Below are positions 2 through 8,766 of a stretch of DNA of 37,623 bases, piece by piece; position 1 is the stretch's first letter, and every line of letters starts with the position of its first letter. Origin of the DNA: Patescibacteria group bacterium. GTDB taxonomy: Bacteria > Patescibacteriota > Minisyncoccia > UBA6257 > UBA9933. Below the pieces are notes generated by a model. It ran no database searches and was not told where the DNA came from. It saw only the letters and a list, made by a program, of their open reading frames with translations. The stretch spans positions 1 through 37,623 of the forward strand of contig JBBTPY010000003.1 of NCBI GenBank assembly GCA_038065955.1, written 5' to 3'. The translations under genes and the position numbers were made by a program.

Positions 2-370
2 ATTGGGCCTGTTACTGGCGGCGGCGATGCTCAAGCGCCTTCCGTTCCCGCTGGATTTTCAGCGCAGGCCATTAGCAGTAGCCAGATAAATCTTTCTTGG
101 ACAGCTTCCACGGACAATGTCGGAGTAGCAGGATACAGAATATACCGTTGTCAGGGAACCGGCTGTACTCCCACAACTCAAATCGCCACTTCTGCCACTA
201 ATTCATATTCCAATACCGGTTTGATCGCCTCCATAGTTTATGTTTACAGAGTTTCCGCCTACGACGCCGCGGGAAATGTTTCCGGCCAATCATCTTCCGC
301 CACCGCCACCACTCAAACAGCGGCCGACACCACTCCGCCGGCAAGTCCGACGGGGTTGACGGTGATATAA
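2..370 (+). CDS. 3' end of FN3-domain surface protein (5'-truncated by window edge)
   Basis: Manual translation of frame 2: ...DAQAPSVPAGFSAQAISSSQINLSWTASTDNVGVAGYRIYRC...YRVSAYDAAGNVSGQS...DTTPPASPTGLTVI*; stop TAA at 368-370. Confidence 0.85.
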   Translation: MGPVTGGGDAQAPSVPAGFSAQAISSSQINLSWTASTDNVGVAGYRIYRCQGTGCTPTTQIATSATNSYSNTGLIASIVYVYRVSAYDAAGNVSGQSSSATATTQTAADTTPPASPTGLTVI

Positions 371-391
371 AATAATATATAATTATAAAAT

Positions 392-775
392 ATGAATAAT
401 CAAAAAACTGATTTTAAAAAATTAATTATTCCCGCGGCGATAATTTTAATATTGGTCGCGGTTGTTGTTTTTTTTGATTTTGTGGTAAAATTAACTAAAC
501 CATCCGGCAACGCCAATTTATCCTGGAACGCCAATATGGAATCGGACTTGGCCGGTTATAAAATATATTATGGAACTTCTCCGAGAACAGGAGATTGTCC
601 GCCCGGCGGATATTTAAAAAATCTTGACGCGGGAAAAACCGCTACGCCGGACAAGCCAAGTTATAAAGTTGAAAATTTGAAAGAGAATAAAACATATTAT
701 TTTTCAATAACAAGTTATGATGTTTCCGGGAATGAAAGTTGTTTTTCACCGGAGATGTCAAAAAGTATTTTCTAA
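392..775 (+). CDS. Membrane-anchored single FN3-like domain protein
   Basis: N-terminal hydrophobic helix, then LSWNANMESDLAGYKIYYG...YYFSITSYDVSGNES. Confidence 0.8.
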   Translation: MNNQKTDFKKLIIPAAIILILVAVVVFFDFVVKLTKPSGNANLSWNANMESDLAGYKIYYGTSPRTGDCPPGGYLKNLDAGKTATPDKPSYKVENLKENKTYYFSITSYDVSGNESCFSPEMSKSIF

Positions 776-816
776 AGGTCAATAATTAAATAAATTAAAA
801 TATAAATAAAATATAT

Positions 817-3800
817 ATGATAAAAAAAACATTGTTTCCCATATTATTTCTGTCAGGATTTTTATTATTTGTTTCTATTCAATCGGCATTTGCCGGCAGC
901 GCCACTTTATCCTGGAATGCCAATACGGAATCTGATTTGGCCGGCTATAAAATATATTACGGAACTTTTACTAGAACCGGTACGGACCCGAAAGTTTGCG
1001 GAATGTGCGGTTATTCGGCCAGCACGACTGTTAGTAGCGCGATTACTACTTATACTTTTAATAATCTGACAGACGGACTTACTTATTATTTTTCTGTTTC
1101 AGCGCGTGATGCGTCTAATAATGAAAGTTCTTTTTCCGGCGAGGTAAGCAAGATTATTCCGATAACCAATACTGTCGCTTCTTCTACTATTTTTTTTCAG
1201 GAGAACTTTGAGGATGCAAATCTTTCATCAAGAGGATGGTATGACGGTACAAACCTGAAACTCTCCGCAACGGAACGCTACGCGGGCAATTCATCAGTGG
1301 AATATCATTTCCTGCCAAACGCCACTACTCCGGAAATTTCAGGAGGCGCGATAAGGCATTTATTCACGCCTACTGATGAGGTTTACGCAAGCTATTACGT
1401 CAAATACAGCGCTAACTATACGGGTTCAAACAGAACCTACCACCCGCACGAGTTTTTAATATTAACCAATGAAAATACTTCTTACGCTGGGCCTGCTTTT
1501 ACGCATCTTACGGCCTATATTGAACAAAATGAAGGAATACCCCTCCTTGCCCTTCAGGATGGAATGAACATTGACCTTACAAGGCTCAATCAGGATTTGA
1601 CAAGCATAACAGAGAGCAGAGCAATAGGAGGCTGCAACGGAGTTCCGAGCGCTGAAGCGGCAAGCACTATAAGCTGCTACAGCATAGGAGGAGGAACTTA
1701 CTGGAACGGAAAGGACTGGAGGGCAGGCGGTTCCCCCAATTCACATGCTGGGACGGTATATTTTCAGGACACAGCAGGCCCTTATTACAAAAACAATTGG
1801 CACCGCGTAGAGGCGTATTTCAAATTAAACAGTATCGTCAACGGCAGAGGAGTGGCTGACGGGATATTGAGATATTGGTACGACGGCAATTTAATAATTG
1901 AAAGAACAAACGTAATAATGAGAACCGGTCAGTATCCGAATATGAGATTTAATCAATTTCTAATTGCTCCATGGATAGGCGACGGCTCTCCTGTGGACCA
2001 GACAATGTGGGTAGATAACCTGACAGTCGCCACCTCCAGACCTTCCGGCCAGATTCTTCCGCTAACAGACACCACTCCTCCATCTATTCCTTCTAATCTT
2101 TCCGCCATAACCATATCCACCACCCAAATCAACCTCTCCTGGACGGCTTCCACAGATAACACAGCTGTAACAGGATATCGAATCTATCGCTGTACCGGAT
2201 CTTCCTGTACTCCTTCAACCCAAATCGCCACTTCAACGACAAATTCATATTCAAATATCGGCCTTACCGCTTCCACTTCTTATACCTACCGAGTGGCAGC
2301 TTACGACGCCGCCGGCAATGTCAGCGGCCAGTCAACAAGCGCCAGCGCTACTACGCAGGTGGCGTATGGTTCGGCAGTTGTTTCCTGGAACGCCAACACG
2401 GAATCTGATTTAGCCGGTTATAAAATTTATTACGGGACTTCCACTAGAACTGGCGCTTGTCCTCCTGGCGGCTATCTCAATAATTTAAATGCTGGGAATG
2501 TTTTAACTTACACTATTAATAATCTTTTAGTCGGCTTAACTTATTATTTCTCAACAACTGCCTATGATTCTTTAAATAATGAAAGCTGTTTTTCCAATGA
2601 AGTCAGCAAATTAATAGCGGCCACATCAACTCTGCCGGCTCCGGATACCACAGCTCCTTCTTTGATTTCCAATCTTTCCGCTTCCAATATCACCCAAACT
2701 TCAGTTAATCTTAATTGGCTCGCTTCCGGCGATGACGGAAATATTGGAATCGCAGCTTCATACGACATCAGATATTCAACTTCCAATATTACGAGTTCTA
2801 ATTGGAATACCGCAGCTCAAGTTTCTGGAGAACCTACCCCTCAAATTTTCGGTTCAAATCAGTCTTTTACGATAGTCGGTCTTTCACCTAATACTCAATA
2901 CTATTTTGCCATTCGTTCGACCGATGACGCCGGCAATATTTCTTCAATTTCCAACATCGCTTCGGCTATAACCCAATCGCTTACCCTTTCCGTTTCCTTT
3001 TCAGCCACTCCTAATTCAGGAACAAATTTTCTTTCCGGAGTAAGTTTGGCCGCTTCTGTTTCCGGTTCCGTCCAAGGCACAACCAACTACACTTTTTACT
3101 GCAACCGTTCCGATTCCGGAACTAATATCACCACTCCTTACGCCGCTAAATACGATAATTCCACTTCAACAACCATAACGGCTTCAAATATTTGTTCTTA
3201 CCCAAGCGCCGGAACTTATACCGCTAAAGTTATTGCGGAAAAAGGGGCAATGTTTTCCGAAAATAGAACAACTATTATTGTTTCTGCGCCAACACCAACA
3301 CCAACACCAACACCTATGCCTACACCTACACCTACGCCTACGCCTACGCCTACGCCTAGCGGCGGAGGAGGTGGCGGCGGCGGAGGCGGCGGTTCATATT
3401 CCGATACAACTCCTCCTTCAACCCCTTTATCTTTTTCCGCTTCGGCTTTCAATAAACAAATAATCCTTTCTTGGAAAAATCCCGCTGATTCGGACTTTGT
3501 CAGAGTTCTTATTACAAGAAAAGAAGGTTCTCATCCAACATCTCGAACCGACGGAACTTATGTTTATGAGGGAACTTCGGAAACTTTTACCGATACAAGA
3601 GTTGAAAATAATAAAACTTATTATTACGCCATTTACGCTTACGATAAAAAACCTAATTTCTCGCAGTCGGCGATTGTTTCTGCCACGCCTTTATCCTCTC
3701 TTATTTCCGCGCCGGCGCCAACAACACCAACAACACCAACAACACCAACAACACCAACACAAAGTCAAATATCAACTCAGGGAATTATTATTGTCGGACC

Positions 3801-4182
3801 TTTTGCCGTTGGCCAGAGGTCGGAACAAGTTAAGGTTCTTCAACAAATGCTTTCTCAGGATGAAGAAGTTTATCCCGATAAGTTGATTACCGGTTATTAC
3901 GGAAATATGACAAAAATTGCGGTTGCCAAATTTCAGCAAAAATATGGCATTGTTTCGGATGGAATCGCCGGTCCGGCGACCAGAAGTAAATTAAATGAAA
4001 TTTTCGGTGGAAGTCAGAAAGTTTCTTCTCAGCCCGTTCAAATTCAGCAACCTTCTTCTTTGGCCGCGGCAAAACAAGTTCTTATTGAAACAATTCAAAA
4101 ACAAATACAAGTTCTTCAACAGAAACTTATTGAATTACTCGCTAAACTCGCTGAAGTTTTAAAGAAAGAAGCCGGGCAATAA
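817..4182 (+). CDS. Secreted multidomain surface protein: FN3 repeats, polysaccharide-lyase/ConA-like domain, PKD-like domain, PT/G linkers, peptidoglycan-binding domain, C-terminal coiled coil
   Basis: Signal peptide ending AFA; about five FN3 motifs; WHRVEAYFKLN...DGILRYWYDG; GQRSEQVKVLQQML...TGYYGNMTKIAVAKFQQKYGIVSDGIAGPATR (PG_binding_1-like). Confidence 0.8.
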   Translation: MIKKTLFPILFLSGFLLFVSIQSAFAGSATLSWNANTESDLAGYKIYYGTFTRTGTDPKVCGMCGYSASTTVSSAITTYTFNNLTDGLTYYFSVSARDASNNESSFSGEVSKIIPITNTVASSTIFFQENFEDANLSSRGWYDGTNLKLSATERYAGNSSVEYHFLPNATTPEISGGAIRHLFTPTDEVYASYYVKYSANYTGSNRTYHPHEFLILTNENTSYAGPAFTHLTAYIEQNEGIPLLALQDGMNIDLTRLNQDLTSITESRAIGGCNGVPSAEAASTISCYSIGGGTYWNGKDWRAGGSPNSHAGTVYFQDTAGPYYKNNWHRVEAYFKLNSIVNGRGVADGILRYWYDGNLIIERTNVIMRTGQYPNMRFNQFLIAPWIGDGSPVDQTMWVDNLTVATSRPSGQILPLTDTTPPSIPSNLSAITISTTQINLSWTASTDNTAVTGYRIYRCTGSSCTPSTQIATSTTNSYSNIGLTASTSYTYRVAAYDAAGNVSGQSTSASATTQVAYGSAVVSWNANTESDLAGYKIYYGTSTRTGACPPGGYLNNLNAGNVLTYTINNLLVGLTYYFSTTAYDSLNNESCFSNEVSKLIAATSTLPAPDTTAPSLISNLSASNITQTSVNLNWLASGDDGNIGIAASYDIRYSTSNITSSNWNTAAQVSGEPTPQIFGSNQSFTIVGLSPNTQYYFAIRSTDDAGNISSISNIASAITQSLTLSVSFSATPNSGTNFLSGVSLAASVSGSVQGTTNYTFYCNRSDSGTNITTPYAAKYDNSTSTTITASNICSYPSAGTYTAKVIAEKGAMFSENRTTIIVSAPTPTPTPTPMPTPTPTPTPTPTPSGGGGGGGGGGGSYSDTTPPSTPLSFSASAFNKQIILSWKNPADSDFVRVLITRKEGSHPTSRTDGTYVYEGTSETFTDTRVENNKTYYYAIYAYDKKPNFSQSAIVSATPLSSLISAPAPTTPTTPTTPTTPTQSQISTQGIIIVGPFAVGQRSEQVKVLQQMLSQDEEVYPDKLITGYYGNMTKIAVAKFQQKYGIVSDGIAGPATRSKLNEIFGGSQKVSSQPVQIQQPSSLAAAKQVLIETIQKQIQVLQQKLIELLAKLAEVLKKEAGQ
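3289..3393 (+). repeat. Coding low-complexity repeat: (Pro-Thr)n hexamers followed by poly-Gly
   Basis: ccaaca/cctaca/cctacg units, then ggc/gga/ggt run. Confidence 0.9.
3718..3759 (+). repeat. 9-bp tandem repeat (ccaacaaca)x4+ encoding a PTT linker
   Basis: Directly visible. Confidence 0.9.
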
Positions 4183-4348: not shown

Positions 4349-4366
4349 CTATGGTTTTCTGTGGAT

Positions 4367-4798
4367 ATGTTTATCGGCGAATTTCAACACAATTTAGACC
4401 TTAAAAGCAGAATCGCGGTGCCGGCGAAATTTCGGCCAAAACTTTCAGGCGGAGCGATTATTACTCGCGGCCTTGACCATTGTCTTTTTGTTTTCGCGAA
4501 TAAAGAATGGGAAGTTTTGGCGCAGAAACTTATCGCTTTGCCGTTGGCGCAAGCGAATTCCCGCGCGTTTGTCCGGCTGATGCTTGCCGGCGCGATGGAT
4601 GTGGAAATTGATAAACAAGGGAGAATTTTAATTCCCGATTATTTGCGCGAATACGCCACTTTAAGAAAAGAAACGATAATTGCCGGATTGTATAATCGCA
4701 TTGAAATTTGGGACGCTGAAACATGGAAGCAATACAAGGCAAAAACCGAAAGCGCGTCCGACGAGATAGCGGAAAAGTTGTCAGAACTGGGCATATAA
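4367..4798 (+). CDS. mraZ: Transcriptional regulator MraZ
   Basis: MFIGEFQHNLDLKSRIAVPAKFR...DKQGRILIP...NRIEIW; ATG at 4367 preferred to GTG at 4361. Confidence 0.97.
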   Translation: MFIGEFQHNLDLKSRIAVPAKFRPKLSGGAIITRGLDHCLFVFANKEWEVLAQKLIALPLAQANSRAFVRLMLAGAMDVEIDKQGRILIPDYLREYATLRKETIIAGLYNRIEIWDAETWKQYKAKTESASDEIAEKLSELGI

Positions 4799-4823
4799 CA
4801 ACTATGACTAAGTAATTTGCGCG

Positions 4824-5717
4824 ATGCACAAACCCGTTCTTTTAAAAGAAGTCATTGAAATTTTAAATCCAAAGCCCGGAGAATTTTTTATTGACGGAAC
4901 CGTCGGCGGAGGCGGGCACAGTTTGGAAATTTTAAAAAAAATCGGTAAAGGCGGAATTTTTTTAGGAATGGATTGGGATGAAAAAATAATTGAACAGACA
5001 AAGTCAAAATTAGACGCAGTATGTCAGATGTCAGACGTCAAATGTTATTTTGTTCACGGTAATTACGCCGATTTGCCGGAAATATTGAAAGAAAATAATT
5101 TGCCGAAAGCCGACGGATTAATTTTGGATTTAGGAATGTCTTCAATTCAGCTTGAACGCTCGGGAAGGGGATTCAGTTTTTTAAAAGATGAGCCATTGGA
5201 TATGAGATACGACATAGCCGAAAGTTTGACGGCGGCGGAAGTTATAAACAGTTTTAGGGAAAATGATTTGAACGATATTTTTTGGAAATATGGAGAGGAA
5301 AGATATAGCCGAAGAATCGCTAAGAAAATTGTTGAAGAAAGAAAGGAAAAAAGAATTTTAACTACATTTGATTTAACGGAAATAATTAAAAGAGCTGTTC
5401 CAAAAAATTATGAAAGAGGCAGAATTTATCCGTCCACCAGAGTTTTTCAGGCATTGAGGATTTATGTCAATTGCGAATTGGAAAATTTAGAAAAATTGCT
5501 GAAAAATATGAGTGAAATTTTGAAACATGGAGGTCGAGTGGCGATAATTTCATTTCATTCATTGGAAGACAGATTGGTAAAAAATTATTTTCGGGAGACG
5601 GCAAAAAAGGGTAAAGCGGAAATTTTAACAAAGAAGCCTATTGAAGCGATTATGGAGGAAATTCAACAAAATCCAAGGGCAAGGTCGGCGAAAATGAGAG
5701 CGATAAAAATAATATGA
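4824..5717 (+). CDS. rsmH: 16S rRNA m4C1402 methyltransferase
   Basis: HKPVLL, DGTVGGGGHS, DLGMSS, PLDMR, ISFHSLEDR, NPRARSAK. Confidence 0.97.
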   Translation: MHKPVLLKEVIEILNPKPGEFFIDGTVGGGGHSLEILKKIGKGGIFLGMDWDEKIIEQTKSKLDAVCQMSDVKCYFVHGNYADLPEILKENNLPKADGLILDLGMSSIQLERSGRGFSFLKDEPLDMRYDIAESLTAAEVINSFRENDLNDIFWKYGEERYSRRIAKKIVEERKEKRILTTFDLTEIIKRAVPKNYERGRIYPSTRVFQALRIYVNCELENLEKLLKNMSEILKHGGRVAIISFHSLEDRLVKNYFRETAKKGKAEILTKKPIEAIMEEIQQNPRARSAKMRAIKII

Positions 5718-6025
5718 CTTTTATTAAACTAAATAAAAACCAAAATAAAATAAATTTTTTGATTTTAATTTTGACGTTTGCCGCGATTTCATCAGCCGTT
5801 TGGGGCGTATTTTTATATAATCAATTAGTGAATTTTCGTCATGAAATAGTCAATTACGAAAAAATTGTCAGTCAAGCGGAAGTGGAAAACGCGGAATTAA
5901 AAAATACTTTATATCAAATAATAGACGTGAAAAATCTTGAATCGGCGATTAGCGGCCGCTTATTAGTTATTGAGAATAAGCCGCAGTATGTCAAAGTCGC
6001 GGAAAGTTTAGCTGAAAAACATTAA
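5714..6025 (+). CDS. FtsL-like cell division protein
   Basis: TM helix plus coiled coil, located between rsmH and ftsI. Confidence 0.65.
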   Translation: MTFIKLNKNQNKINFLILILTFAAISSAVWGVFLYNQLVNFRHEIVNYEKIVSQAEVENAELKNTLYQIIDVKNLESAISGRLLVIENKPQYVKVAESLAEKH

Positions 6026-6026
6026 A

Positions 6027-7610
6027 ATGCGCTGGCGTTCTTATTCTATAATTTTTATATTCGGCGTTTTTTACGCGGTTTTAATTTTTAATCTTTATAA
6101 TATTCAATTAAATAAAAATGTTAAAGCCGGCGACGCTTTATCGCCGGAAAGGGGCAATATTTATTTTACCGATAAAAACGGCAATTTAGATTCGGCGGTT
6201 TTGAATAAAGAGTACGATATAATATACGCCGTTCCGAAGGAGACGCAAAATCAAAATAATAATTACGCCGAAATATTAAGTCCGATTATTAATCTTTCGG
6301 CCGAAGAAATTAAAAAAAAATTAAGCAAACCGAACGATTTATATGAATTATTGGTTCAAAAGGCGTCATCGGAGCAAATTAATAAAATTAAAGAATCGGG
6401 ATTAAAGGGAATTTATATTAATAAACAGAAATTGCGTTTTTATCCATTTGGCAGTTTAGCTTCGCATGTTTTGGGATTTGTTTCTCCAACGGTGGATAAA
6501 GAATTTTCCGGCCGTTATGGAGTAGAACTTCAATATAATTCGTTATTAGCCGGCGCGCCCGGAGAGACGGACGGCAAGGATATTATTTTAACGATTGATA
6601 AAAATGTTCAGGCGCAGGCGGAAGAAGTTTTTAAAAAAATGGCGGAGAAATGGCAGGCCGAAAGCGGCGCGATTATTATTCAAGAATCGTCAAGCGGCAG
6701 GATTTTAGCAATGACCGGAATGCCCGATTTTGACCCGAATAATTATTCAAGTTTTGAAATAAAAAATTTTCTTAATCCGGCGGTTCAGTCAGTTTATGAA
6801 TTCGGTTCTGTGGTAAAAATAATGACCATGGCGGCCGGCATTGACAGCGGGAAAATTACTCCGGAAACAAGTTATGTTGATACGGGCTCGGTTACTTTAA
6901 ACGGCAGAACTATTCAAAATTGGTGGAAAAAAATTTACGGCCGAGTCACAATGACGGAAGTAATTGAAAATTCAATCAATACCGGTTCGGTTTTTGCCGA
7001 ACAGAAGACTGGTCATCAGATTTTTTACAATTATTTGATTAATTTCGGTTTTAATAATTTAACCGGCATCGGTTTGCCCGGAGAAGTAAGGGGCGATATT
7101 AAAAATCTTAAAAACGGCCGCGATATCAATTACGCGACGGCTTCTTTCGGCCAGGGCATTTCAATGACGGCAATTGAATTAATTAACGCTTTTTCGGCGA
7201 TTGCCAATAACGGCGTTTTAATGAAACCGTTGATTTTAGCCGATGAAAAATCGGAAGTAATAAGGAGAGTTGTTTCCGCGAAAACGGTTAGGCAATTAAC
7301 AGAGATGATGGTTTCCGCGATTGATAAAAATAAGGCGGCCGATATCGCCGGTTATTCAATTGCCGGAAAAACAGGCACGGCTTACATTCCCGATTTTAAG
7401 AACGGCGGCTATAGCGATAAAGTGATTAATACTTTTGTCGGTTTTCTTCCCGCCTTTGCCGATTCGGCTTCCGTTCAAAAATTTACGGTTTTAATCAAAC
7501 TTGATAAACCGAGAGGCGTACCGTTTGCTTCGGAAACGGTCGCGCCGGCTTTTAGAGAATTGGCGCGGTTTATTATAAATTATTATAATATCGCGCCGGA
7601 CAAATTATAG
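6027..7610 (+). CDS. ftsI: Class B penicillin-binding protein (FtsI/PBP3-like)
   Basis: N-terminal TM, RGNIY, RFYP, GRYGVE; SxxK (SVVK), SxN (SIN), KTG. Confidence 0.88.
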   Translation: MRWRSYSIIFIFGVFYAVLIFNLYNIQLNKNVKAGDALSPERGNIYFTDKNGNLDSAVLNKEYDIIYAVPKETQNQNNNYAEILSPIINLSAEEIKKKLSKPNDLYELLVQKASSEQINKIKESGLKGIYINKQKLRFYPFGSLASHVLGFVSPTVDKEFSGRYGVELQYNSLLAGAPGETDGKDIILTIDKNVQAQAEEVFKKMAEKWQAESGAIIIQESSSGRILAMTGMPDFDPNNYSSFEIKNFLNPAVQSVYEFGSVVKIMTMAAGIDSGKITPETSYVDTGSVTLNGRTIQNWWKKIYGRVTMTEVIENSINTGSVFAEQKTGHQIFYNYLINFGFNNLTGIGLPGEVRGDIKNLKNGRDINYATASFGQGISMTAIELINAFSAIANNGVLMKPLILADEKSEVIRRVVSAKTVRQLTEMMVSAIDKNKAADIAGYSIAGKTGTAYIPDFKNGGYSDKVINTFVGFLPAFADSASVQKFTVLIKLDKPRGVPFASETVAPAFRELARFIINYYNIAPDKL

Positions 7611-7620
7611 AGTATAGAAT

Positions 7621-8766
7621 ATGCGTCAAATTTCAATAAATATTTTTAAATATATTCTTAAGCAAATTGCCAAATTAACGATTTGGCGTTTTAAGCCGGA
7701 AATTATCGTTGTTACCGGTCCTGTCGGAAAAAGTTTAGCTAAAGAGGCGATTTTTGCGGTTTTTAAAAATCACAAGCGTGTAAGAAAAGAGAGCGATGAT
7801 TTTAACGGTGAATTAGGCGCGTTTTTGGCTGTTTTGGGCGGATGGCGGAAAATCGGCCGGCCGCTTTTTTTATTTTGGTTAAGAGTGTTCGTTTCATCAA
7901 TTTTAAAACTTGTTTTTTTGCCGAAGTCGTTATATCCGAAAATTTTAATTTTAGAATCAGGCGAATTTAAACCGAAAATCGCCGTTTTAACCGCCGTAAG
8001 CGACAGCGCGGTTGAATTTCCTCAATCTTGCGATTTCGCGATTTTAAGTTTTGATTCCGCGTCCGCCGTAAAAATTAAAAAACGGATAAAAAATTATGGG
8101 AAAATTTATGACGAAGAATCAGATGTAAAAATAATAAATTTTGAAAATCGGATTAACGGAGACGGTTTATCCGGTATTTCTTTTAAAATTGAATATGGCG
8201 GCAGTTTCGTGCCAATTGTTTTAAAAGAAGTTTTGGGGAAATCTCACGCTTTTGCCGCGGCGGCAGCCGTTGCGGTCGGCTTGATTCATAATTTAAATTT
8301 AGTGGAATCATCGGAGTTGATTATGTCGAATTATCGGCCGTTAAAAGGCAGGATGAACTTGACCGTCGGACTAAAAAACACTTATATTATTGATGACAGT
8401 TATGGCGCTTTGCCGATTTCCGCGCGGTTGGCGCTTGAAACCGTTAAAGAATTGAAAGCGCCGAGAAAAATCGCGGTTATAGGAGATATGCTGAATGAGG
8501 GAAAGTTTACCGTTGAAGCGCATAAAGCAATCGGTCAGTTAGCCGCTGAAAGCGTTGATGTTTTATTAACGGTCGGTCCGCGGGGAAAATTTATCGCTGA
8601 AGCGGCGCTTGACGCCGGTATGGCAAAAAATAAAGTTTTAAGCTTTGATATTTACGAGGAAGCGATTGAGCCGTTAAAAAAAATAATAAGAAAAGGGGAT
8701 TTGATTTTAATCAAGGCATCAAGAGCGGTGGGATTAGAAAAAGTCGTTGAAGAATTAAAGGTTTAG
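7621..8766 (+). CDS. murF: MurF-like Mur ligase, shortened
   Basis: VTGPVGKS P-loop, GRMN, IIDDSYGA, IGDML, LIKASRAVGLE. Confidence 0.7.
   Translation: MRQISINIFKYILKQIAKLTIWRFKPEIIVVTGPVGKSLAKEAIFAVFKNHKRVRKESDDFNGELGAFLAVLGGWRKIGRPLFLFWLRVFVSSILKLVFLPKSLYPKILILESGEFKPKIAVLTAVSDSAVEFPQSCDFAILSFDSASAVKIKKRIKNYGKIYDEESDVKIINFENRINGDGLSGISFKIEYGGSFVPIVLKEVLGKSHAFAAAAAVAVGLIHNLNLVESSELIMSNYRPLKGRMNLTVGLKNTYIIDDSYGALPISARLALETVKELKAPRKIAVIGDMLNEGKFTVEAHKAIGQLAAESVDVLLTVGPRGKFIAEAALDAGMAKNKVLSFDIYEEAIEPLKKIIRKGDLILIKASRAVGLEKVVEELKV

Follow-up and report, generated by a model that had tools for sequence, protein, structure and literature searches.

Introduction

Why does a gene for a secreted enzyme end in a single edge strand of a fibronectin type III (FN3) domain, when the FN3 modules encoded next to it lack this very strand? 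This question is raised by the first 37.6 kb of contig C3 (JBBTPY010000003.1) of a Patescibacteria group bacterium, here called the window, which belongs to a genome (G000) of 639 kb in nine contigs that is 99% complete. At the start of the window, the end of a gene for a secreted lyase-like enzyme (gene 1) is followed by the genes for a membrane-anchored protein of 127 residues and a peptidoglycan-binding protein of 1121 residues, which together carry three FN3 modules without strand A. The tail of gene 1 and these modules probably form a split FN3 domain, a dockerin-like tag and its receptor, by which enzymes are held on anchors in the membrane and on peptidoglycan; the binding, its geometry and the resulting display are what we infer from structure modelling, co-occurrence and gene order.

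Bacteria of the Candidate Phyla Radiation (CPR) make up a large share of bacterial diversity and live attached to other cells. To our knowledge, they possess no outer membrane that could hold back their secreted enzymes, and the organisation of their surface is almost wholly unexplored.

The C-terminal tail of gene 1

The initial annotation, made from the DNA letters alone, had claimed that gene 1 ends in a strand-A-like tail, and this is confirmed by the open reading frame (ORF) and its stop codon (Table 1). The encoded fragment consists of a complete FN3 domain at residues 15-99 (Pfam fn3, E 2.1e-9, profile positions 2-80 of 84) and the tail. The ORF has the C-terminus ...TATTQTAADTTPPASPTGLTVI, and the end of the gene, including the tail, reads ...ATTQTAADTTPPASPTGLTVI-stop. 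The tail was also said to match the opening of the complete FN3 domains in the 1121-aa protein, which holds as well, as three of these open with DTT[PA]P-x-x-P/S-x-x-[LF]-S-A. Gene 1 is separated from the 127-aa gene by 21 AT-rich bases that hold two further in-frame stops. Read-through or a frameshift fusing the two genes is excluded by the in-frame stops at 368-370, 380-382 and 386-388 and by the intervening membrane helix.

In a six-frame scan of the whole 639-kb genome, D[TI]TPPASPTGLTV[QMI]-stop closes six of the 649 ORFs of at least 100 aa. Four of these six paralogs, of about 390 aa, are complete and located on contig C5, and two are truncated where contigs C2 and C3 begin; because both contigs start within copies, the assembly must have broken inside this repeat family of tail enzymes. 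The complete paralogs consist of a signal peptide, a PF14099-like jelly-roll domain, an FN3 domain and the tail, and gene 1 aligns with them. PPASPTGLTV is invariant in all six, with synonymous differences in eight of its ten codons. As the residues are identical despite these synonymous changes, the tail is under purifying selection. An assembly artefact or a truncated pseudogene is excluded, with the tail and stop lying inside contigs, recurring in the four complete C5 genes and being conserved through synonymous changes.

AlphaFold2 (AF2) assigns no secondary structure to the last 15 residues in its monomer model of a complete paralog, and the predicted local distance difference test score (pLDDT) decreases from 73 to 58 across the final 23 residues. 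The tail is not packed on the protein's own domains in this model. This bears on the possibility that the tail self-associates the enzymes by a strand swap with their own or a sister complete FN3 domain, or that the modules pair through their open strand-B edge. Edge strands of beta-sandwiches commonly mediate dimerisation, and the excess of tails over modules in G000 (six against three) would suit such pairing, but many tail proteins have no FN3 domain of their own, such as the lyase-only forms of about 290 aa and the beta-helix enzymes. Together with the unpacked tail, this makes self-association very improbable.

FN3 modules without strand A

The genome contains exactly three strand-A-less modules according to the six-frame scan, and all three lie in the window, one in the 127-aa protein and two in the 1121-aa protein (Table 1). 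The modules start with the motif G-x-A-x-[LV]-SWNAN-x-ESDLAGYKIYYG, and the module of the 127-aa protein opens with GNANLSWNANMESDLAGYKIYYG... after its spacer. That they open directly at strand B had been noted before and was upheld by the scan and by the fn3 profile (PF00041). With 29.5 bits, the 127-aa protein is above the cutoff of 25, and its match is limited to positions 13-75 of the 84 in the profile; as the match begins only at position 13, strand A is not represented in it. For the 1121-aa protein, the fn3 score is 112.3 bits, and cleavage of its signal peptide is predicted, from a site read by eye, between AFA and GSATLSW.

The AF2 model of the 127-aa protein (pLDDT 87.8, from a 120-sequence alignment) has a helix at residues 9-33 and strands at 39-44, 53-61, 76-81, 90-96, 100-110, 115-117 and 122-126, and the module in this model is an FN3 domain without strand A. 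With Foldseek, the best matches of the module are the FN3 domains 5dft, 1va9 and 4wtw (probability 1.00, target-normalised template modelling score (TM-score) of 0.5-0.7), and a sequence search of solved structures with a module profile returned generic FN3 domains only. By profile score and fold the module is thus FN3, without having the seven strands A to G in one chain.

The residues flanking the module could in principle supply the missing strand, which the initial annotation had named as an outcome that would speak against its proposal. This role for the module's own flank (e.g. DFVVKLTKP) is excluded by the AF2 monomer, in which the helix at 9-33 is followed by no strand before residue 39. 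Among 120 relatives, the flank or spacer before the module ranges from about 3 to 40 residues and is variable in sequence.

Relatives of the module were collected to determine how general this architecture is. From 180 candidates, 169 relatives of the 127-aa protein were obtained at E<=0.001, which, where named, are mostly labelled Patescibacteria or Parcubacteria. The best 120 have a hydrophobic N-terminal segment and a variable spacer, followed in all of them by G-[ST]-A-[TN]-L-S-W, and in several relatives the module motif directly follows a signal-peptidase-type site (ALA/GSATLSW). In the subtype, recognised by the signature W...GY-x-[LIVM]-Y-Y...YYF...NES..S, the C-C' insert is long, and both a Cys pair (C69, C117) and the motif NESCFSxExxK are conserved. 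Most modules of the subtype come right after a signal peptide or a membrane helix, and Pfam fn3 matches to them begin at profile positions 10-16. A PxxPxxLx motif in the 30 residues upstream was found in none of 180 distinct modules from all collected loci and proteins, and in the same 180 no tail and module were fused in one chain, judged by a strand-A motif within that distance. At least 534 relatives of the module are present in representative genomes of CPR bacteria, Nitrospirota, Desulfobacterota, KSB1, Bacteroidota and others.

The anchor gene is usually followed by a gene for a second module protein, which ends in PG_binding_1 in G000, G208 and G017 and in a type I dockerin in G019 and G013. 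Further module proteins of relatives with type I dockerin ends (PF00404) are found at L037:7176-8495, L037:9160-11001, L041:5566-6369 and L134:313-903. Also, ORFs of about 207 aa with a strand-A-less FN3 module and dockerin-like ends often follow the anchor gene (L044, L046, L047, L050, L054, L097). These dockerins suggest that the relatives may have a second layer, based on cohesin and dockerin, beside the split-FN3 one.

A modelled complex of tail and module

The initial annotation had suggested modelling the tail together with a module, and this was done with the module ectodomain (residues 34-127 of the 127-aa protein) and the 122-residue fragment of gene 1 that holds the FN3 domain and the tail, each with its own alignment. 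The interaction prediction score from aligned errors (ipSAE) of the complex is 0.82 (three runs, 0.81-0.83) versus 0.00 for the best of three controls. For reference, the mark used is reached by 116 of 157 solved complexes and by 2 of 215 mismatched pairs, which is only roughly applicable to models from own alignments. The three runs show 100% contact agreement, with a partner pLDDT of at least 88.

On the side of the enzyme fragment, the interface consists of residues 108-122 only, i.e. the tail. The module contributes residues 41-46 of strand B as well as residues 104-110 and 114-124, which cover the end of strand F, the FG loop and strand G together with the conserved NESCFSxExxK. Module and tail come closest at 45:119, 44:120, 43:121 and 42:121, in an antiparallel register like that between strands A and B of an FN3 domain, so that the tail occupies the strand-A slot. 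A by-eye alignment of the complete FN3 domains of the paralogs with the tail plus module places the split at the A-B turn: APSVPAGFSAQ/AISSSQ/INLSW in the complete domains versus PPASPTGLTVI-stop and ...SGN/ANLSW in the separate proteins. Covariation between tail and strand B, inspected by eye in about 12 adjacent pairs, gave no interpretable pattern.

Co-occurrence and gene order

If tail and module function together, they should be found in the same genomes, as was also put forward in the initial annotation. Among 41 relatives, strong module matches are present in G000, G011, G013, G017, G019 and G025. For a wider survey, 301 evenly drawn genomes of the order were used, in which a strong module was defined as E<=1e-15 and a tail as PxxPxGLx[VIM]x-stop. 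This G-L pattern replaced a looser DNA pattern with a background of about 2-7 matches per genome. A constant false positive of the loose pattern is a conserved gene end PGKP-I-I-L-L-M-stop, which belongs to a housekeeping gene and recurs in most relatives (e.g. G000 C3:76168-76200 on the minus strand, G003 C4:36447, G009 C4:14919).

The module is present in six of the 301 genomes, of which G000, G011, G017 and G208 belong to one family and G025 and G056 to one genus. All six have true tail ORFs: six in G000, nine in G017, two each in G011 and G208, three in G025 and one in G056, the last of which (...PAAPTGIRVK) falls outside the pattern and was found by inspecting the locus. In the 295 module-negative genomes, tail-pattern matches are at background level, with a similar result for a reversed-pattern control. 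Inspection of 12 pattern matches in nine of these genomes gave one real ORF end, in G143; the remaining listed matches were judged by translation alone. The survey is strongly positive, with tails in 6 of 6 genomes with the module versus one confirmed case in 295 without, and gene order agrees. A class sample of 401 genomes added seven module-positive genomes from six other families, and tails are found in five of them (G317 2, G342 5, G514 5, G626 1 and G662 about 16). G013 has at least ten tails.

The order of these genes is conserved as well. The stop of a tail gene lies 8-330 bp upstream of a module gene in G000 (22 bp), G011, G208, G025, G056 and G626. In addition, 78 contig loci centred on a module were examined, a set that may overlap with the genomes above and was not merged with them; 16 of these hold 29 tail ORFs among 1338 ORFs. 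In the best 27 CPR loci, a tail gene is the next gene upstream on the same strand in eight (nine with L065), at distances within the same 8-330 bp, and the next gene downstream in two more, and the anchor gene can be preceded by as many as five tail genes in a row (e.g. L049, L055). Outside the CPR, in three metagenome loci, a protein with a strand-A-less module as its last or only domain is encoded directly upstream of tail-bearing lyase-like genes (L151, L157, L168).

The module could instead be an autonomous six-stranded variant, for instance for binding glycans or partner cells, next to which the tail is an inert, proline-rich remnant of truncated FN3 repeats, so that the two are co-located without contact. 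A module that AF2 folds confidently alone, its wide distribution over many phyla, often with no tail gene nearby, and the modules of G019, for which a pattern search found no tail, are in line with this. A remnant, however, would not stay invariant through synonymous change, nor would it be expected to track the module (6/6 versus 1 confirmed in 295), to stop at an identical position in 29 of 29 unrelated proteins or to be present on at least nine enzyme folds. This explanation is considered unlikely.

The tail on diverse enzymes

The consensus of the tail is D-T-T-P-P-x-x-P-x-G-L-x-V-x-COOH. In the 29 tail ORFs near module genes, the stop is in every case exactly one residue past the last hydrophobic position, although the pattern allowed 0-2 residues. 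Among the best 120 homologs of the complete paralog, 17 end in PxxPxx[LIVM]x{1,3}, and ten of these 17 are proteins of about 290 aa without FN3 that end in ...GPADTLAPAAPTNLTVQ. The C-terminus of other homologs is a hydrophobic helix followed by a basic tail, and lyase-like homologs without the tail have a membrane or PEP-CTERM-like anchor, or a dockerin or dockerin-like repeats, at the same position. The type of lyase-like domain found in the 1121-aa protein elsewhere runs straight into the tail and stop (P0082, L151, L153, L168: ...DNLTVAT...PxxPxNLxVx-stop). Many non-CPR proteins with similar ends (PPKNLRVN, PSPPTGLTIVQ, LPAPTDLHVQ) are present in 41 metagenome loci of the lyase-like family.

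Pfam matches in 26 tail proteins from CPR loci include PL14-like, chondroitinase B, right-handed beta-helix, apiosidase-like, Pel9A-like, heparinase II-like, PcRGLX-like and GH42-like domains, and 14 of the 26 have no Pfam match. Counting the PF14099-like domain, at least nine different enzyme folds bear the tail. For PF14099, the 393-aa paralog scores 26.1 bits against a cutoff of 29.9, and homologs carry precomputed PF14099 labels. Foldseek matches of the lyase-like domain are the alginate lyase Aly36B, a glucuronan lyase and TtX122 (target-normalised TM-scores 0.47-0.62). By these similarities, the paralogs are putative polysaccharide lyases.

In some genomes, unrelated enzymes share a genome-specific ending, such as ...APSGLxVL (L059:11762-18234 and G662 C5:88355-99003) or ...PSAPSGLSVS (L055:371-8234). 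Such endings would fit co-adaptation with the local socket, or a recent spread of the tag by recombination. The protein P0002 (685 aa, labelled Nitrospirota) begins with a strand-A-less module, which is followed by two FN3 domains, a hydrophobic, anchor-like segment inside the chain, another signal-like segment, a lyase-like domain and the tail. Gene calling may have joined two genes here.

A C-terminal tag that is common to many secreted proteins is typical of sorting signals. The tail might accordingly serve another partner or process, i.e. sorting, processing, wall attachment or a different receptor, with the strand-A-less FN3 proteins merely encoded in the same surface-glycan cluster. The PEP-CTERM-like or membrane anchors that homologs have at the position of the tail, and the tail protein of G143, a genome without a strong module, agree with such a role. 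Against it stands that the tag is precisely the strand that the neighbouring protein lacks, ending at the A-B turn, and that the modelled interface uses the tail only. Moreover, the hydrophobic helix and the basic end of known sortase- and exosortase-type signals are missing from the tail, and the genes that follow in the window, mraZ, rsmH and those for a penicillin-binding protein (PBP) and a Mur ligase, do not include one for a processing enzyme. Another partner for the tail is therefore rather improbable. A sortase-like signal in particular, suggested by the resemblance of SPTG to LPXTG, is excluded, as no hydrophobic or basic segment follows. The proteins stop one residue past L-x-V without a helix, and so carry neither a sortase (LPXTG) nor an exosortase (PEP-CTERM) signal.

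Proposed mechanism of enzyme docking

The initial annotation had proposed that the tail completes the acceptor fold in trans and thereby docks secreted proteins, and this proposal is supported by the complex model, in which the binding is a modelled one, and by co-occurrence and synteny. In the proposed mechanism, glycan-degrading enzymes would be exported by the Sec system with a free 14-residue tag at the end that corresponds to FN3 strand A. The receptor would be the FN3 subtype without strand A, usually at the mature N-terminus, which is present once on the 127-aa anchor and twice on the 1121-aa peptidoglycan-binding protein. The tag is predicted to add antiparallel to the open strand B, with PPxxP packing on the conserved NESCFSxExxK region of F-G/G. 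A seven-stranded FN3 domain, cut at the A-B turn, would thereby be rebuilt, and the enzymes would stay at the surface of a cell without an outer membrane, held at the membrane or in the wall. A donor C-terminus that abuts the acceptor N-terminus at the A-B turn would fit the constant position of the stop, one residue past L-x-V, and this geometry would explain why the socket is so often the first element after a signal peptide.

Several observations weigh against this tethering of enzymes through a split domain. AF2 folds the module alone with a pLDDT above 90 despite the absent strand A and with no hint of instability. The subtype lacks strand A everywhere (180/180) and in many phyla, including loci without tail genes. 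As modules of this subtype are also present in genomes and at loci in which the search gave no tail gene, complementation may not be obligatory. No tail ORF is present within the flanks of up to 10 kb in 62 of the 78 module-centred loci. At the level of genomes, G143 has a tail protein and no strong module, G019 has the anchor and a module-dockerin protein with no tail by pattern search, and G594 and G635, which have the weakest module matches (one at a contig edge), have no recognisable tail. The tail pattern covers only PxxPxx[LIVMF]x[VIM]x-stop, by which variants are missed on both sides, and the co-occurrence counts come from related genomes that are not independent, although they span at least seven CPR families.

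Other points concern the stoichiometry, the selection and the model. G000 has six tails and only three sockets, and an edge strand of 10-14 residues could give only weak affinity. The FN3 body of the paralogs is likewise under purifying selection, so that conservation of the tail alone is not distinctive. The controls of the complex model were unrelated proteins and comprised no scrambled tail, internal strand A or complete FN3 acceptor. The predictor may merely complete the familiar FN3 fold and place any strand-A-like peptide in the slot; the model shows that the parts are compatible, not that they bind.

A broader version of the mechanism is more tentative. The socket may be a general one that crosses phyla, with any secreted protein ending in PxxPxxLxVx-COOH as a client, and together with the dockerins it may form a hierarchical, cellulosome-like organelle on the CPR surface that attacks glycans of the host or the environment. 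This is possible rather than probable.

Comparison with known systems

In a full-text literature search, no description was found of an FN3 domain split between enzymes and anchors. The docking mode is apparently undescribed in print, and the principles behind it, donor-strand complementation and tag-receptor display, are known. In Pam pili of Saccharimonadia, which are CPR bacteria, a recent preprint describes donor-strand exchange between truncated immunoglobulin-like (Ig-like) pilin domains (PMC13278184, bioRxiv 2026). In the same work, PamR, a membrane-anchored tandem-FN3 protein, is predicted to insert an extra strand into the pilin (PMC13278184). The Pam work is a precedent for strand donation at the CPR cell surface, and the proposed system would resemble both Pam pili and the chaperone-usher systems Pap and Fim in that an Ig-like fold without one strand is completed by a strand of another polypeptide.

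Other features set it apart from these pili. Here, a true FN3 domain lacks strand A, an edge strand at its N-terminus, and in the pilins it is strand G, a core strand at the C-terminus, that is missing. The strand would be donated by the very C-terminus of enzymes that have no acceptor domain, and therefore no polymer can form; the apparent purpose is tethering of enzymes and not assembly of a fibre. Of the features of donor-strand systems, an Ig-like acceptor fold without one strand, in this case edge strand A, is found, and head-to-tail polymerisation is not. Genes of chaperone or usher type are absent from the neighbourhood in the window, which consists of mraZ, rsmH, PBP and Mur ligase genes, and no genome-wide search for chaperone-like proteins was made.

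The second comparison is with cohesins and dockerins. As in those systems, a short C-terminal tag is carried by non-homologous polysaccharide-degrading enzymes, the receptor is single on a membrane anchor and multiple on a wall scaffold, and the genes for tags and scaffolds are clustered, so that one tag on many enzymes and co-occurrence of tag and receptor are shared with them. Unlike a dockerin, the tag has 14 residues and no Ca-binding repeats, and PF00404 was matched in 0 of 26 tail proteins and in none of the proteins of the window. Unlike a cohesin, the receptor is an FN3 module of about 90 residues, and the proposed contact is completion of a fold and not surface-to-surface. The proposed system is akin to cohesin-dockerin in its logic and to donor-strand complementation in its structure, and is a member of neither family.

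A C-terminal peptide is added as a strand in PDZ domains. A similar case are the tails of PilC1 and PilC2 on the Kingella type IV pilus, for which C-terminal beta-strand augmentation is reported (PMC13711793, 2026). In both, as here, a conserved extreme C-terminal peptide extends the sheet edge of a partner. The acceptors in those cases are complete folds with a groove, in contrast to the acceptor here, which is a domain minus one canonical strand. Finally, tail and module together match a complete canonical bacterial FN3 domain (PF00041, e.g. chitinase A1, 1k85), from which they differ in that the domain is divided over two genes at the A-B turn.

If the proposed mechanism is true, a 14-residue tag and an anchor of about 90 residues would account for the arrays of secreted proteins that otherwise lack an annotation in many CPR genomes. 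Enzyme display would gain a third principle beside cohesin-dockerin and covalent sorting, and donor-strand complementation would extend from the building of fibres to the modular docking of enzymes. The pair would also be a very small natural tag and catcher for protein engineering. The prediction is testable with recombinant fragments, and culture of the organism is not needed for this.

Features of the window and neighbouring genes

The coordinates of the features of the locus are collected in Table 1.

Table 1. Features at the start of the window, with nucleotide positions counted from its first letter.
Feature	Position	Strand	Description
3' end of the gene for a secreted lyase-like enzyme (gene 1)	2..370	+	122 codons and stop; 5'-open at the contig start
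Donor tail DTTPPASPTGLTVI, an orphan FN3 strand A	326..367	+	Stop codon at 368-370
127-aa membrane-anchored acceptor protein	392..775	+	Basic N-terminus, membrane helix, five-residue spacer, one strand-A-less FN3 module
Membrane helix of the 127-aa protein	416..490 (residues 9-33)	+	AF2
Strand-A-less FN3 module of the 127-aa protein	503..772 (residues 38-127)	+	Includes W45
1121-aa wall-bound scaffold/enzyme	817..4182	+	Signal peptide at 817-894; domains joined by PT-rich and poly-Gly linkers
Acceptor module 1	895..1164	+	Profile of strand-A-less module, E 1.3e-37; starts at the predicted mature N-terminus GSATLSWNANTESDLAGYKIYYG
Concanavalin/lyase-like domain	1192..2061	+	FFQENF...WVDNLTVATSRPSG; PF14099 E 6.4e-5, 23.4 bits, below the cutoff of 29.9
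Complete FN3 domain with its own strand A DTTPPSIPSNLSA	2068..2358	+	Best fn3 stretch at residues 424-507, profile positions 2-79
Acceptor module 2 (GSAVVSWNANTESDLAGYKIYYG...SKLIAA; GSAVVSW)	2368..2622	+	Module profile E 1.0e-41; five residues past the preceding FN3 domain
Complete FN3 domain DTTAPSLISNLSA...	2644..2937	+	Pur_ac_phosph_N/fn3 at residues 619-707
Complete FN3-like domain DTTPPSTPLSFSA...	3403..3700 (end approximate)	+	DUF4959 at residues 861-958, weak
Peptidoglycan-binding domain PG_binding_1	3817..3993	+	PF01471 E 5.1e-12, residues 1001-1059; followed by a coiled-coil-like C-terminus

Inside the gene for the 1121-aa protein, positions 3216-3463 contain a (PT)n linker followed by eleven glycines, with spurious low-complexity ORFs on the opposite strand and in other frames. 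Contig C5 ends inside the N-terminus of a further paralog of the tail enzymes (C5:56-490), which leaves the true copy number and linkage uncertain. The four complete paralogs (C5:575-8839; L002, L004-L006) are interleaved with toxin-antitoxin-like pairs, namely a nucleotidyltransferase with HEPN and a nucleotidyltransferase with a HepT-like protein (PF01909/PF18765, PF05168, PF01934), and a toxin-antitoxin-like pair is also located upstream of the anchor gene in G017. Downstream of the 1121-aa gene, a dcw (cell-division and wall) cluster directly adjoins at 4361-8766, which contains mraZ, rsmH (MraW) and the genes for a small membrane protein, a class B PBP and a Mur ligase.

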